This document shows positions 413-6,199 of a stretch of DNA of 6,199 nucleotides, piece after piece. The DNA is from Amoebophrya sp. A120. Taxonomy: Eukaryota > Protista > Dinoflagellata. The translations under genes and the position numbers were made by a program. Where the stretch lies: positions 633,473 to 639,671 of the forward strand of contig CAJINV010000022.1 in assembly GCA_905178155.1 (NCBI GenBank), given 5' to 3'. Position 1 is the stretch's first letter. The number at the start of each line of letters is the position of its first letter. The notes under the pieces were generated by a model. The model saw only the letters and a list, made by a program, of their open reading frames with translations. It had not been told where the DNA came from and did no database searches.

Positions 413-3400
413 ATGAAGCACGCACTGGCATCTCGGGTGCTCCTGCTTTTCTGGAGCACCAAATCTGTCCTGGTCGCCGCATCGGCCTCCAGCGACTCGT
501 CGCACACCAGAATCACTATGCGTTGCAAACGTACTTATCGTACTCGTAGAAATGCATCACAAATTTCGATTTCCTCAGCAGGAGAAACAAAATTTGTTCA
601 AATGCGAATTTAGCTTAAGAACAAGACTTGTAATGCATAACTGCAAGTACTACGAGTAGGTACGATACTTTTGCGCAGGATAATCCCCGACGGGCAGCAG
701 CAGGTGACCAACCCTCAAACGGCGCAGGAGTCTCTTGCGGGAGCTGGTGCAGCCGAATCTCCCAAAGCTACCGACGATGTGGTCCTTGAACCCGACAGCA
801 GTAGTACTTTTTTGACACCCAGCACGAGCGGCGCAGAAGGTGCCCTGCCAGAGTACGCCTGGGACCGGGTTTATTCGTTCTTGGCCGGCAATGGGGTCGC
901 GTCGGGCTCCTTCGATCAAAAAGCCTATGCTTTGCAAACATGTCTGGGTCTGGAAACTTGTGATGCTGGGTGGCGTATCATGAGGAGGCCGCGAGTCCTG
1001 GCTCAGCATGACAAGTTTTTGAGCTTCTAGATGTTGGCTCTTCTGCATGACAAACTGCGTTTCTGCATGACAGAAAAATGGGGCTCTTGGGTAAAGTGCA
1101 TGACAGATTTAAGAGTCATGCCAGACAAGCATGACAAACATGCACTTTTCCATACCCAGACAACATATTTGCGCTTGATAAAGCCGACCGCAAAGCAACT
1201 GTGGAAAACCTCGAAAGCCACCACGCAAAGACCAAGCAGGCGGCTGTGGTGGCGGCCGACCCGGGCACAATCCGTCCGGCGGTTTCTCAGAAGTGGCTCC
1301 AAGCTGCGGAAATCGTGCGCGCTGCTGGCCACAGTGGCGATAGTGGTACAGTAGGAAGCCAATCTGCCCTTACCGATGCTCATCTTGGCACCGCGACGAG
1401 AGACACCATGCTGCAAAAAGTTCTGAAGCGGAAACACCGTCTAGGCCCAGAGGGGACTGACGCAACCTCAAGCCTTGCTGCCGCAAGCAAGGCGAGTCGG
1501 AAGTTTGTGGAAAAAAAGACGAAGAATTATTTGCAAAACTGGTACAATAAAGCGACTGCCGGCATCGACAGAGCCCCTGGTCATTATCCTTTCATCGCAA
1601 AGGGACTGTTTTCTTGCACGGTGGAAGACTTTTATGACCTGCTTGCCGAGGCTATCCTGAGTAAAAACGTACCCACACCAGAGTCAAGATGGGGAGTTTG
1701 CAACACAAACCTAGGAGTTTTGTGAGTCACGCATGACAAGTTGCACTATGCAGTGTAGTGCAGGTCGGCAAGTGCAGCCGCATCACAGATTCATCTGCTC
1801 ATCCTGTTCACAGCATCACAAATTCCAAAACACGATTGGAAATGGCTCTCATGGGGATGCGCATTACAAGTCTTCCTGTCTTTGCAAATCTGCATTACAA
1901 CTCTGGTGTGGGTACGTTTTTACTCAGGATAGAGGCTCCGGACGACGAGATCGCGCACGCAGTGATGATCCACGGCGACGTCATGCCGAGCTGGCTTTCT
2001 GCGAACATTTTGCGCGAAAAGCTCCGGCCGCTCATCCAAGGAGCGCGCGAGCGTGGAGGTGGGACCGGTGGCCCCCGCCTGGAGGGTCACGGGGCAGGAA
2101 CGGCGACCGAAAGCCCCCCGACAAGCGCTGCTGGAATCACCCTTCCACACGGTGGCAGCCTGAGTGCGCAGGGCGAGTCCTTCATTGCTGTGCACAACGA
2201 CGTATGGGCAGATGACGGATTACATGGGCCAGACATGAGCGCAACCTCCCGGGCCCGCTTTCTGGAGCAAGTCGTGCGAGAGGATAATCCAAGTGCGTAC
2301 TACCCGAGGTTGTTTGTTTCGAACCCCGATTATGACCCTGACGTTCTTGTTCGTGGTCGCAGCCGCCGGACGGGCGATCGCATCACGTTGCGGCATATCA
2401 AATGCAACTATGTCTGGGTGTGGAAGATTGCCAGGTTTGTCATGCATATTTTGCATGACGCATGATGCCTGTAGTGCATGACTTAGCATCACAGATTTTT
2501 GGAAGGCATCCTAATGCCTATTCCGCATGGCAAATGCCCTCTCCGCGTAGCACAATCTGGGCTCCTCTTCCTGGTCATAGCACTACAGATCTTTTGAGAA
2601 TCCAAAGACAGCATTACAAGTTTGGATCCACCTTCCAGACCCAGACATTTTTGCGATGCATATGGCACAAGAAAAAATTTCAGGGGCGGTACGCCTACAG
2701 CGACGGTGGAGTTCATTCTACCTCGAGCATATTCTGAGAAAAAATCCCCCCTCCCCATACTACTCAAAACGGAAATTTGTGATGCTGATTTGTGACCACA
2801 AATCAGCTTCGTCTTGCATATGAGGCATCAAATGGGAGCCGTATCCCGCACTCGACAGCAAATCTGTCATGCGCTTTTACCTACCGCGCACCTGTCTGTC
2901 ATGCCGAGCTGCTAGCCTTTTGCATACTCAATCAGGCTTGAAAAATTATGCCTTCACGCTCTTGCCGCAATTATACACAGCTGATTTGTGTACAGAAATC
3001 CAGCATGGGGTGGGGGTTTTTTCATATTTCCTTTTTTGAATGGGGTGGGGGTTTTTTCATATTGATAGAGCAGTGGCTCCGATACCCTGCGTTACACTAC
3101 GGACTTCGACGCCACACGGGATATGGGGGTGTCAGGATTGAGATCGTCAAAGTTGAAATAGTTTGTCATGCATAAAATCGATACCAGTTGGAAGCCCAAT
3201 TTTCAAGCGGCGCATGACAAATTTAGGCACCGTCGAAATCCGGTCTGTCATGCTGTTTAGGGACAGAAGGCGTCTTTTGTCGTGCTACTTTACCAGCCCT
3301 ACCGCAGACCTCAAACAGGCTGACTGTCGGCCTCATTTGCCATCCCTGCAAGACAGGTACGTCATGCCTTGCATTTTATGCATGACAAATCATTTCAACT

Positions 3401-3588
3401 TTGTCGATTTCAAACCTGACGCTTCCATACGGGATCTCCTGAACGTTACCGCCGAGGAAGTCCATTTTGTCATCGTAGAGTCGCCGACGGTCATGACGCA
3501 TATTCGCTGCAAGCCGAAGAAAAATTGGGAATGCAAGCTGCAGATTTGTCAGCACAGCAGCAACGACCCTTTCTCGTCTCAGGGGTAA
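413..3588 (+). CDS. Gene 1: reconstructed 7-exon, 510-aa hypothetical protein, probably secreted. Exons 413-516, 688-925, 1186-1652, 1937-2395, 2668-2729, 3073-3121, 3435-3588; boundaries can slide within the 5-bp repeats.
   Basis: Removing six TIR elements plus one repeat copy each gives 1533 nt with no internal stop, from ATG 413 (context aaaaacaATG) to TAA 3586-3588. Junctions read SHTRI(T/P)DGQQ, FDQKADRKATVE, DLLAEAPDDEIA, RITLRHKKKFQG, HSTSSSGSDTLR and DATRDLLNVTAE. This joins parts of track ORFs 389-613, 671-1030, 1201-1725, 1758-2465, 2462-2737 and 3163-3588. The N-terminus MKHALASRVLLLFWSTKSVLVAASA looks like a signal peptide by eye. No family recognised with confidence. Confidence 0.85.
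517..682. mobile_element. Element E1 (166 bp): degenerate TIR element / putative non-canonical intron 1 of gene 1
   Basis: Left end TATGCGTTGCAAAC...TACTCGTAG versus reverse complement of right end TATCCTGCGCAAAA...TACTCGTAG (about 22/33 matches). Flanks ATCAC (512-516) and ATCCC (683-687). Contains an in-frame TAG at 611-613, and removing 171 nt keeps the frame. Confidence 0.72.
926..1180. mobile_element. Element E2 (255 bp), family A: putative non-canonical intron 2 of gene 1
   Basis: TIR core TGTCTGGGTCTGGAA (941-955) / TTCCATACCCAGACA (1148-1162). Perfect repeat AAGCC at 921-925 and 1181-1185. About 87% identical to the reverse complement of E7. Removing 260 nt restores the frame. Confidence 0.9.
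1653..1931. mobile_element. Element E3 (279 bp) with a perfect 32-bp TIR: putative non-canonical intron 3 of gene 1
   Basis: TATCCTGAGTAAAAACGTACCCACACCAGAGT (1653-1684) is the exact reverse complement of 1900-1931. Perfect repeat GAGGC at 1648-1652 and 1932-1936. Removing 284 nt restores the frame. Confidence 0.93.
2396..2662. mobile_element. Element E4 (267 bp), diverged family A: putative non-canonical intron 4 of gene 1
   Basis: TIR core ATGTCTGGGTGTGGAAG (2410-2426) / CTTCCAGACCCAGACAT (2632-2648). Flanks CGGCA (2391-2395) and TGGCA (2663-2667). The right end TTCCAGACCCAGACATTTTTGC is identical to that of E7. Removing 272 nt restores the frame. Confidence 0.88.
2730..3067. mobile_element. 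Element E5 (338 bp), family B: putative non-canonical intron 5 of gene 1
   Basis: TIR core GAAAAAATCCCCCCTCCCCAT / ATGGGGTGGGGGTTTTTTC. Perfect repeat GAGCA at 2725-2729 and 3068-3072. The interior is collinear with the reverse complement of E8. Removing 343 nt restores the frame. Confidence 0.88.
3005..3063 (+). repeat. Exact 24-bp direct duplication of the inner right TIR of E5
   Basis: ATGGGGTGGGGGTTTTTTCATATT occurs at 3005-3028 and 3040-3063. Confidence 0.9.
3122..3429. mobile_element. Element E6 (308 bp) with a ~57-bp imperfect TIR: putative non-canonical intron 6 of gene 1
   Basis: 3122-3178 (TATGGGGGTGTCAGGATTGAGATCGTCAAAGTTGAAATAGTTTGTCATGCATAAAAT) pairs without gaps with 3373-3429 (reverse complement TATGGAAGCGTCAGGTTTGAAATCGACAAAGTTGAAATGATTTGTCATGCATAAAAT). 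Perfect repeat CGGGA at 3117-3121 and 3430-3434. Removing 313 nt restores the frame. Confidence 0.92.
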
Positions 3589-4847
3589 GGCGGTCCACCT
3601 GACATTGGTACCTTTTTTGGTGCGCCGAACTTTTGGACTTTGACAGCATAACATTCTTATGCAGTTCGGCGTGGTCAGACTGAATAGAGATCCAGCTCCT
3701 GCTGCGCCATGATATCACTTGTGATGTCTGCTGCTGCTAATGACCTCTGTTTGGCGGCCTTATCTTTCCGGAAAAGATATGGTCGAAGCTAGGATATTTC
3801 ACATGCACTTACACACTGCTTTTTCTATACGATTTTTTACCGCAGAATGCCTTATTCTTTGGTCGTGTCCTGTCGTGATCGTTCATATACAATTTTTTTT
3901 ACCGCAACTCTGAGGAAGCCAGTTCTTGCTTCTATCATCAAGGCCGGGGCACAGGGGAAAGGTTTCGACAAAAGACCATTAGCCTTCAACAACTAGGAAG
4001 AACTTTATCATCACTTTGATTTTAAAGCGCTATTGCAAAAGATTTTGATTCAGGGTCGTGCGCGCAAGCGCAGCGCGCAGCTTATTTTATTTTTGTGCAG
4101 TCCATTCTACAACAACGTTAGATGACACATCAGTAGGCTACACTGCTGATAAATTTCAGCCAGGAACAAATAGTGCCGCCGACGTTCGTCTTCTCGCTAG
4201 AACTTATGCGCCACTATCTTTTTGACCACTGCCGCTAGCCACGCTTTGATACGCACTGGGCCGACGACCATCTGGGTATGCCATGTTGTGCTGGATCTAC
4301 AGTTCCCGCAGGTGGCGCGGTGCTTGGTCGACCTCGATCCTGTTCGCGTCAAGTAGTACAAGTCCTGGTATTCCTTCGGGGGACAAAGCAACCCCGAGCG
4401 AGAGCTCGACGAGATCATTTCTTCGATTGATATCGCCATCACCGAACTGTAGGAAAATACGCAGATCTGTCATTGTCGTTTTGCGATAAGTTTTCGCGAG
4501 ATGTCAGTCAAGGGTGGACCTGCAGTGAAGATCACTGTTTCAACGAATTGCTTTTGTGTGATGAGACATTTCTTTTGCAAATATAGAATTTAACACCCCA
4601 GAAATGCCAGCCTTTTAGTTTTATGCACCTTTTTGAGGCAAATATCGCGGTCGTCTTCTACTTAGTTCATTTCTTATTTCTTACCTCACATAAGTGCCAG
4701 CACCGGCTTCTTTCCTTAAATATTTTGTCCATATTTTTCTCGTGCGATTTCACTAAGCGCAGAACAAGGTTTGTTCTGTCATCAGTACGCGCCGCGCTCT
4801 ACTTGCCGCAACTTCAACATCTCTAGCTGTAATATACGGATAGAATT

Positions 4848-6199
4848 ATGGTCGCCTTTTTGAAGAAAAAGATGCTCGGGTCAATGTTGGGCCCATGCAT
4901 GATCTTATTCAGCGCAGGAGCCCCTCGCTTCGCGCTGGCTGCCGCGCCAGGAGCAGCACCTTCTGGAGGTCGTGATATTTTTGCAGGAACCGGCCTAGAA
5001 GATACAGGCGCGCTTGAGGTTGTCGGGCGCAGGAGGCTATCAAGTGCAAAAATGTCTGGGTCGGGAAGAATGCAAGTTTGTCATGCTTGTCTCACATGAC
5101 TTTTGAATTTGTCATGCACATTACCCAAGAGCCCCATTTTTCTGTCATGCAGAAACGCAGTTTGTCATGCGGAATAGGCAACACCTAGAAGCTCAGGAAC
5201 TTGTCATGCTGAGCCAGCACCTGTGGCCTCCTCATGATACGCCACCCAGCATCACAAGTTTCCAGACCCAGACATTTTTGCATTTGGTAGAGGCCGGCGC
5301 CGGCCGCTGGCGAAGATGGTGGTCGCCCAACGAGATTTCTGCGCCGGACTTTTCCTTATCGTAAGGAAAAATCCCCCCTCCCCATATCAAAACGATGTTT
5401 CTGATGCTTGATTTGCGTACACAAATTAGATTTGTCTTGCTGGCGAGGACTGCAGGCCCATATCAAGCCTGAGTAGACAGGTTTGGGCCTAGGCGCTTAG
5501 CATGACAGACGTCTACGCTGTAGGAGCAACAGCATGACAAACCGCCTGTAGAATGTGGCGGAGCCTGTAGATTTGCCTTCATGCAATACAGCGACGATTT
5601 GTGGTCTCAAATCAGCATCACAAATTTTCAGGAGTGTCCCGGTTTGGTATGGGGAGGGGGGATTTTTCCTCACAATATTCCTGATCAGCATGCTAGTAGC
5701 GGGTCCAGCTTTTTATCCGACAGAAAAGTACGGACTTATGTTTACCTCAACACTGGAAAATCATTTATTGTGTTTGTCATGCAATTTTCAGCATCACAAA
5801 AAAATTCCTGTTGTCTGTTCAACATGGCAAGCTTTTTCGGTACATATCGTTATCCTCCCCATGCACATCGTGCATCACAAATGCGAATTCCGTTGTGCGG
5901 GGCGAAAAAGTATCGGCAAAATAGTTGTCTCTGCAAAGCAGAATTTTTAGCGGCACAAATTTTTGTTGAGCAAAACAAGTCACAAAACACAGATTTAGAT
6001 ATGTTTTTTTGCTGCCATGGCGATGGCCGTACTTTTCTGAATGATAATCTTCGACGACGCAGCCAGAGATCGGAATTGTGAATCCCAACAACCTGTGCTG
6101 GATGATCAGCTTGTCGCAGAGTTTGGTCTACATTCCGTCCCTGCACGAGGAAGCCGCGGCGGTGTGCGCGCGAAGAGATGAGGAGCAGCGATTGCTAGG
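4848..6199 (+). CDS. Gene 2 (3' end beyond window): ubiquitin-specific protease (USP, peptidase C19)-like protein with a signal-peptide-like N-terminus. Exons 4848-5037, 5295-5356, 5683-5713, 6052->6199.
   Basis: Removing three elements gives MVAFLKKKMLGSMLGPCMILFSAGAPRFALAAAP...VVGRRRPAPAAGEDGGRPTRFLRRTFPDQHASSGSSFSTTQPEIGIVNPNNLCWMISLSQSLVYIPSLHEE..., open to the window edge. GIVNPNNLCWMISLSQSLVYIP (6072-6137) fits the USP Cys box GLxNxGNTCYMNSxLQxLxxxP, with Cys at 6096-6098 and Asn five residues upstream. In unspliced DNA this frame is closed by TAA 6045-6047, with no ATG before the Cys. The His box is not in the window. The start could be ATG 4848, 4872 or 4884. Confidence 0.8.
5038..5289. 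mobile_element. Element E7 (252 bp), family A, inverted relative to E2: putative non-canonical intron 1 of gene 2
   Basis: Left TATCAAGTGCAAAAATGTCTGGGTCGGGAA versus reverse complement of right TACCAAATGCAAAAATGTCTGGGTCTGGAA (27/30). Perfect repeat GAGGC at 5033-5037 and 5290-5294. Removing 257 nt keeps the frame open. Confidence 0.92.
5357..5677. mobile_element. Element E8 (321 bp), family B, inverted relative to E5: putative non-canonical intron 2 of gene 2
   Basis: Left TATCGTAAGGAAAAATCCCCCCTCCCCATA versus reverse complement of right TATTGTGAGGAAAAATCCCCCCTCCCCATA (28/30). Perfect repeat TTCCT at 5352-5356 and 5678-5682. Removing 326 nt keeps the frame open. Confidence 0.92.
5714..6046. 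mobile_element. Element E9 (333 bp): putative non-canonical intron 3 of gene 2
   Basis: Left TATCCGACAGAAAAGTACGG versus reverse complement of right TATCATTCAGAAAAGTACGG (17/20). Degenerate flanks CTTTT (5709-5713) and ATCTT (6047-6051). Removing 338 nt joins the upstream exons in frame to the USP Cys box. Confidence 0.85.

Follow-up and report, generated by a model that had tools for sequence, protein, structure and literature searches.

The 6,199-nucleotide stretch of Amoebophrya sp. A120 analyzed here (contig CAJINV010000022.1, positions 633,473 to 639,671; the whole stretch is referred to below as the window) carries two protein-coding genes interrupted by nine elements, E1 to E9. Each element has the form TAT...ATA (E7 ends in GTA) and is flanked by 5-base duplications. 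These elements are members of the introner elements of this organism, which are described in the main text and supplement of Farhat et al. 2021 (PMC7789003) as having TAT-N7-AAA ends, inverted repeats, 3- to 5-nt direct repeats, repeated families, and no fixed splice dinucleotides, with removal backed by RNA-seq. The means by which Amoebophrya disposes of over 60% of its introns in the absence of splice dinucleotides is treated in that text as an open question. Here, we report that such elements sit in their host genes in both orientations, that the removed length is fixed, that the duplication copy retained follows the direction of the transcript, and that there is no fixed 3′ dinucleotide. 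We propose, at a probability of roughly 0.5, that they are transposon-like inserts cut from pre-mRNA by a system that measures from their ends.

Host genes and elements of the window

Both host genes lie on the + strand, as a sequence-only reading of the window had held, the strands being assigned from protein homology only. Taking the six elements E1 to E6 out of gene 1 (413..3588) opens a 510-amino-acid frame from the ATG at position 413, with relatives P0001 to P0003 in A120 and 100% identity to P0001 in the exon at 1932-2390; a Pfam search of the gene 1 protein returned no family. Gene 1 equals P0001 across its large exons and departs from P0001 and P0003 past approximately residue 425, as a mosaic among copies would. 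The 5′ part of gene 2 (4848..6199) is interrupted by E7 to E9 and runs off the window. The exons that flank these three elements align on the + strand to P0006, a ubiquitin-specific-protease-like protein (Pfam UCH, E 1.3e-19). The gene 2 product has a hydrophobic N terminus and, judged from its sequence, could be a secreted deubiquitinase of a parasite; the gene is present in several copies (P0004 to P0006), with a depth of about 100 to 180 versus 30 to 45 in run X1. Each gene exists in several near-identical copies, and in places the window departs from the listed A120 proteins. Left unspliced, the frames of the two genes stop after 66 and 83 residues.

The nine elements of the window were curated together with 46 from metagenome loci (n = 55), and the element detector found 0 elements in 10 shuffled sequences. 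With 35 terminal bases trimmed off each end, elements were typed by their interiors into seven families, A to G; a family partner was missing for 12 of the 55. In gene 1, E1 (core 517..682, +) belongs to family C and has duplications that differ at position 4, and E2 (926..1180, +), of family A, runs from TAT to ATA between two copies of AAGCC, with a predicted removed stretch of 925-1184. E3 (1653..1931, no orientation assigned) is a long inverted repeat with the duplication GAGGC and no family partner among the 55. E4 (2396..2662, +; family B) has duplications that differ at position 1, E5 (2730..3067, +; family D) has the duplication GAGCA and a predicted removed stretch of 2729-3071, and E6 (3122..3429, +; family E) has the duplication CGGGA. 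In gene 2, E7 (5038..5289) and E8 (5357..5677) are minus-strand members of families A and D, respectively, with duplications GAGGC and TTCCT and predicted removed stretches of 5037-5293 and 5356-5681. E9 (5714..6046, no orientation assigned) is single-copy-like, and its duplications differ at positions 1 and 3. Across the set, the 5-bp duplications were perfect in 34 of 50 elements and imperfect in 16, and 44 of 50 elements carry stops in all three frames. Short, non-coding, with inverted ends and a target duplication of fixed length, the elements have the traits of miniature inverted-repeat transposable elements (MITEs).

Several elements required decisions on scope. Three full elements without a target duplication, at L001 561-826, L004 6038-6290, and L009 558-825, were dropped for that lack as likely misjoins; the two flanks of the first appear to code on opposite strands, as would result from a misjoin in the assembly or from recombination of copies. 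The element at L009 3102-3320 was kept out of the splice-register and arm-profile counts (n = 51) and entered the orientation tally as minus, by reading frame only. The family A copy at L006 140-392 was excluded from the duplication and end-dinucleotide counts (n = 50); the ortholog diverges just before it, and its likely position is not exonic but a few bases into a canonical GT intron.

Elements also vary in length. At L007 2826-4279, in a parvulin-like gene, two elements lie 7 bases apart with a net exon of 2 bases between them, and the upstream one is a family B copy of 1178 bases that holds a long internal insertion. Copies of family C (L004 1746-2273) and family B (L006 1373-1776) have likewise grown by internal insertions. 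The interior of the element seems to be free, because removal of L006 1373-1776 still yields the frame of the ortholog.

Orientation relative to the host gene

The sequence-only reading had described E2 and E7 as full-length reverse-complement copies with about 29 substitutions and a 3-bp gap, and E5 and E8 as inverted relatives from an independent family; both descriptions were reproduced. E2 aligns with the reverse complement of E7 over 255 columns, with 223 matches, 29 mismatches, and one 3-base gap (blastn E 1e-90), and the alignment scores 381 on the opposite strand versus 45 on the same strand. E5 matches the reverse complement of E8 at 67.6% over 296 columns (E 7e-17), with global scores of 201 on the opposite strand and 101 on the same strand; the motif already pointed out as shared by E5 and E8 is the inverted pair I4, at 2773-2819 and 5581-5627. 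Both pairs remain opposite after the 35-base trimming of their ends, and they fall into separate families. We also considered E2 and E4 as an opposite pair inside gene 1 and rejected it, as they share their ends alone; the ends of family B resemble those of family A, and the interiors differ.

To extend the comparison to other loci, a search was made with a 20-base motif of family A, which gave nine metagenome loci. Five of these carry the element families of the window, at identities of up to 93%, and were used for an orientation tally; the other four (L002, L003, L005, and L008) held bare matches of 20 to 21 bases, were judged to be chance, and were dropped. Host strand was taken from restored frames, Pfam, and orthologs, and from the reading frame only for the hosts of L001 128-453, L007 1164-1425, L007 9850-10107, and L009 3102-3320. 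Removal of 11 elements at L001 gave a 579-amino-acid frame with kinase-like Pfam pieces, and removal at L006 gave a CNNM protein that matches the A120 ortholog P0008. The hosts at L004 and L007 are a family B DNA polymerase and the parvulin-like gene, respectively; an A120 gene model misses the later introns of a parvulin-like gene.

The four larger families are split almost evenly between the two orientations relative to the host gene (A, 4:4; B, 4:5; C, 5:3; D, 2:3). The small families gave 3:0 (E), 3:0 (F), and 2:1 (G), and the minority orientations add up to 14 of 39, versus 12.9 expected under 50:50. Over the window and five loci, families A to D agree with the expectation of roughly 50:50 in each family, and E and F count against it. 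Both orientations are found within one gene for family A (L001 and L006), family B (L006 and L007), and family C (L004). The strand of gene 2 is therefore no longer critical, because both orientations of the same family occur inside single genes.

Removed length and position of the cut

Evidence on removal came from contigs of sequencing runs, of which X1 and X2 behave as genomic DNA and X3, X4, and X7 were treated as RNA by guess. Contigs of X3 contain joints over eight of the nine elements, each skipping exactly the core plus 5 bases: 171 for E1 (joint 515/687), 260 for E2, 284 for E3, 272 for E4 (joint 2391/2664), 343 for E5, 313 for E6, 326 for E8, and 338 for E9 (joint 5711/6050). At E5, the right-end motif is perfectly duplicated over 24 bases (3005-3028 and 3040-3063), and the RNA-type joint uses the outer copy. 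For E7, a full joint is replaced in two contigs by a loose end of 17 bases at 5037 whose sequence matches that of the following exon, and P0006 joins the exons that flank this element. Another contig leaves the window near the same edge, at 5032, and differs from the window by 10 letters and 6 gap letters. E7 must accordingly be read with its loose-end junction, its chance GC-AG register, and the multicopy state of gene 2 in mind. Contigs of X4 and X7 leave the window at duplication edges, and one from X4, which matches 1180-1415 without a single difference, bears 66 letters from upstream, the arrangement found at the E2 joint.

The DNA-like runs hold the elements in place. Contigs of X1 and X2 continue across element-exon borders and span E9, and the element bins of these runs are thousands-fold deeper than exons. 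E9 is at about single-copy depth in these runs, and its interior (5797-6003) is covered in X1 and X2 and has a depth of 0 in X3, X4, and X7. The eight joints at core plus 5 bases and the loose end at E7, with which the conserved loci agree, support the proposal that elements are removed from transcripts in both orientations. Raw RNA runs X12, X13, and X14 returned 3, 2, and 432 reads, respectively, those of X14 all on one element end. These 432 reads carry the end of E3 (window 1653-1695) in a different context and in both read directions, as if an element end were kept in the RNA or DNA of another locus.

The borders of the removed stretch are not those of canonical introns. No register of the duplication offers GT-AG, GC-AG, GA-AG, or AT-AC in 46 of 51 elements, including E2, E5, and E8; a canonical-like register exists in the other 5, among them E3 and E7, which offer GC-AG. 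Mismatched duplications allow the cut to be placed. Of 17 such cases, 9 were informative and 1 was informative at position 5 only. The remainder comprised 3 synonymous cases, 1 dropped case, 1 without an ortholog, and 2 that went uncounted because a parvulin motif was their only guide. In the RNA-type joints, the letters that survive at E1 (position 4), E4 (position 1), and E9 (positions 1 and 3) are the upstream ones. Ortholog P0008 fits the upstream copy at all five informative L006 sites, which cover family A in both orientations and family B in one, and ortholog P0042 fits it at the single informative L007 site. The upstream duplication is therefore kept in 9 of 9 cases whichever way the element faces (p 0.004). 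Because the upstream copy is kept in either orientation, the cut follows the transcript, not the element.

One site places the cut more closely. At L007 5196-5452, the residue of the ortholog is obtained only if position 5 is drawn from the downstream copy, which together with the other cases locates the cut at the boundary of positions 4 and 5, such that the intron would be N-TAT...ATA-N4. The cut is thus likely 1 base before TAT and 4 bases after ATA. In this 1/4 register, T stands at +2 in 49 of 50 elements, the first base is C in 17, G in 16, T in 9, and A in 8, all 16 end dinucleotides are present, and GT/GC/GA-AG occurs in 0 of 50. The predominant motifs listed in Table S4 of PMC7789003, nine for A120, which all start with N-T, and those of A25, which start with TT, fit this register, although aligner conventions may contribute.

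Recognition of the ends and candidate machinery

The sequence-only reading had suggested recognition through symmetric features, namely, the terminal inverted repeats, the TAT-N7-AAA ends, and the direct repeats, or action on double-stranded DNA. A signal in mirror-symmetric ends agrees with our counts: the base profile of the 5′ arm is the same as that of the complemented 3′ arm, and 46 of 51 elements lack a canonical dinucleotide pair. Over 51 arms, T, A, and T occupy positions 1 to 3 in 50, 51, and 49 elements, and A occupies positions 11 to 13 in 40, 45, and 47; the TAT-N7-AAA form is seen overall, and AAA is absent from the E6-type and F-type families. Arm positions 8 to 16 covary between the two ends, positions 5 and 6 do so weakly, and positions 4 and 7 do not, with family relatedness contributing to the signal. 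Predicted pairing closes the ends in 49 of 50 elements on either strand, and folding z scores are −3.7 for E2 and −6.0 for E7. Of the 51 elements, 50 have an A at −7. The direct repeats and double-stranded DNA fared otherwise. Recognition of direct repeats is disfavored: 16 of 50 duplications are imperfect, and the element at L006 1814-2046, with mismatches between its copies at positions 4 and 5, is nevertheless removed in a way that preserves the frame and the sequence of the ortholog. Excision from DNA is disfavored by the retention of the upstream copy, which follows the host gene, and by the DNA-like runs that keep the elements.

We consider it highly probable that removal is achieved at the RNA level by measuring from the ends and, if so, we favor the spliceosome as the catalyst. 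The inverted-repeat ends would make the RNA always start with N-U-A-U and always end with A-U-A-N4. Because an inverted repeat gives the same 5′ and 3′ sequence either way, orientation is invisible to a polar machine, and the earlier concern that two-way removal conflicts with spliceosomal polarity falls away; canonical introners are also inserted both ways in Polarella and Aureococcus. Removing the element plus 5 bases would undo an insertion at any site. An inner stem, from arm position 8 onward, would hold the ends together and leave positions 4 to 7 open, where U6 and U2 could pair. The candidate catalyst is an altered spliceosome without U1 that retains U at +2 and sets the 3′ site by distance; its branch point might be the A located seven bases from the 3′ end. 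The available text of PMC7789003 reports no detection of U1 snRNA in either A25 or A120, and that of PMC12005148 reports it from a GT-AG Amoebophrya. Overall, we lean slightly toward a second, sequence-free splicing code in A120, in which a paired TAT/ATA ruler (1 base in, 4 out) undoes 5-base-duplicating insertions at any site and in either orientation without a scar, whether through a spliceosome that needs no U1, G at +1, or 3′ AG or through a new RNA nuclease-ligase that converged with the system of Euglena.

The latter catalyst, a dedicated non-spliceosomal nuclease and ligase that measures from paired ends and releases linear or circular RNA, of the kind proposed for euglenid nonconventional introns, is the main alternative, a tentative and rather doubtful one. 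Normal spliceosomal chemistry needs constraint at +1, −1, and −2, and these positions are unconstrained here, as this alternative would have it. The predicted terminal pairing on either strand and the fold scores of E2 and E7 also suit it, as do the paired triplet and 3- and 5-base spacers of Euglena introns, for which the available text of PMC12501133 gives no known machinery, and the circular products reported in that of PMC11282704. However, T is kept at +2 in both Amoebophrya strains despite unlike end motifs, as far as the tabulated motifs go; loss of detectable U1 accompanies these introns while nearly all spliceosomal proteins are retained, according to the accessible portions of PMC7789003 and PMC12005148; the repeat layout is shared by 15% of canonical A120 introns in the former; and no wobble bias supports an RNA stem. 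Removal on DNA or during transcription, either by transient excision from the template or by RNA polymerase jumping the hairpin between the duplications, we regard as improbable. It would account for the full strand symmetry, the lack of an RNA-specific wobble bias, and element sequence being far thinner in RNA-type than in DNA-type runs, and a jumping polymerase would likewise retain the upstream copy. Yet re-annealing needs 3′ homology, and mismatches lie at positions 4 and 5 of L006 1814-2046 and position 4 of E1; L007 5196-5452 draws position 5 from the downstream copy; E9 stands at about single-copy depth in the DNA-like runs; and a symmetric DNA cut yields no retention that is polar with respect to the host.

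A hairpin with a short direct repeat is the classic layout for reverse-transcriptase artifacts, and the elements have it. Both window genes are multicopy, and differences from the window sequence are seen in the contig at the edge of E7, so that the joints might be template-switch artifacts or come from element-free gene copies, the interrupted copies being unexpressed. We give this explanation very little weight: the unspliced frames end early and 44 of 50 elements stop all three frames, conserved genes with 8 to 11 elements need exact removal, and the X4 contig without differences over 1180-1415 has the same upstream letters as the E2 joint. Furthermore, a backward-running enzyme would be expected to retain the downstream copy, the opposite of what is seen in all nine cases. 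Equally improbable, in our view, are ordinary spliceosomal introns that borrow GT or GC and AG from the duplication in the manner of Polarella and Aureococcus. The canonical-like registers of 5 of 51 elements, E3 and E7 included, and the publication, in the preprint text cited below, of canonical introners inserted in either orientation speak for them; the 46 elements with no such register, including E2, E5, and E8, speak against them, as does L006 728-978, where a GT-AG register is on offer that would give W and the homologs favor another register, with L in all nine aligned homologs that have a residue there.

Several points weigh against removal by measurement from the ends of an RNA. Runs X3, X4, and X7 are RNA by guess, raw RNA runs X12 to X14 did not cover either gene, and the joints of the DNA runs, among those listed, are dominated by repeats, so that an absence of DNA joints is not established. 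No excess of G.U over A.C was found in the arms (24:28, 43:42, and 67:57), and folding of the sense strand was no better than that of the antisense strand (23 of 50); selection for an RNA stem is thus not detected, and the signal may be either the pairing of the ends or the end motif alone. The A at −7 has a mirror counterpart at the 5′ end and could be nothing more than a transposase signal; E7 has G there. Families E and F are both 3:0, each with p 0.25. Six of the nine polarity cases rely on the ortholog of another strain, not on RNA of the same strain, and the 1/4 register leans on one conservative I/V residue and on a table open to aligner-convention bias.

The elements have already been published; what appears to be undescribed is the geometry of removal and its independence of orientation and site, with the likely 1/4 ruler, as a property of this known class. 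They share with the published A120 introners the end motif, inverted and direct repeats, families, non-canonical borders, and absence from transcripts, and the host matches, with one window exon 100% identical to an A120 protein and other exons that differ from the listed copies. The borders given in the text of PMC7789003 are variable or unknown, whereas here the removed length is always core plus 5 with the upstream duplication kept. In its main text and supplement, "orientation" is used only for gene blocks (4 and 3 times), with no tally of elements; figures 3, 4, and S19 to S25 fall outside this count. More generally, neither an orientation tally nor a fixed cut register for Amoebophrya was found in the literature searched, which largely excludes subscription papers and in which figures or data sets may show one. 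In Gozashti 2022, the method as given in the accessible text allowed opposite-orientation pairs, and in Gozashti 2025, on the same footing, A120 was included and the filter was same-orientation similarity.

Other systems show parts of this behavior. The available text of bioRxiv 10.1101/2020.10.14.339549 describes DNA-transposon-like introners with target duplications in Polarella glacialis and Aureococcus anophagefferens, which form introns in both orientations, take GT/GC/GA and AG from the element or from a constrained target, and are orientation biased in classes 6, 8, and 10. Introns in both orientations are common to both systems; here, in contrast, the target is unconstrained, the ends are non-canonical, and the four larger families are near even. 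Nonconventional introns of Euglena, a lineage unrelated to Amoebophrya, share an inverted terminal motif, frequent direct repeats, and a proposed MITE origin (PMC12501133 and PMC11282704, available text), as well as cut sites set by spacers with the shorter spacer at the 5′ side (PMC12501133). Theirs are CAG/CTG with spacers of 3 and 5 to 6 and a purine after the 3′ cut, unlike the TAT/ATA ends and likely spacers of 1 and 4 here, so the euglenid signature N3-CDG...CHG-N5-6 with a purine exon start is not seen in our elements; no passage on the orientation of Euglena introns was found in the accessible text of PMC12501133. MITEs share the short non-coding form with inverted ends, the fixed 5-bp duplication, high repeat depth, and random orientation but are not known for the precise removal from transcripts seen here.

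Internal eliminated sequences of ciliates have TA-rich inverted ends, occur in either orientation, and are precisely removed from coding sequence; they are excised at the DNA level, in a distinct somatic nucleus. In Amoebophrya, in contrast, the elements are still present in the DNA-like runs, and the duplication copy retained depends on the direction of the transcript.

The options for intron removal in Amoebophrya are narrowed by three features: removal regardless of orientation, a fixed element-plus-5 length, and a cut with the polarity of the transcript. The geometry predicts where the cuts fall and that mismatched duplications are tolerated, and it singles out the A at −7 as a candidate branch point. 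If it is correct, any insertion would be undone, which would explain the dense invasion of coding sequence at nearly any site without damage to the gene. The element-plus-5 rule can be used to repair gene models, and an intron that works either way and independently of site is of practical interest.

Further observations concern the surrounding sequence. Searches of viral contigs with two element motifs and of Rfam over 45 kb each returned 0 matches, and a candidate degenerate element near L007 4673-4926 was rejected, as the frame was not restored in the register tried. Inverted-repeat segments of a different type, with no 5-base duplication, lie at L007 11535-12101 and L009 3854-3995. Past window position 4352, an X4 contig goes on for 124 unrelated bases, and a break at 4348 is common to contigs of X1, X2, and X3. 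Finally, a short motif of the type GCATGACAAA/GCATCACAAA (window 553-5963) recurs within elements of every family and, from its recurrence in the sequence, may be a shared protein-binding site.

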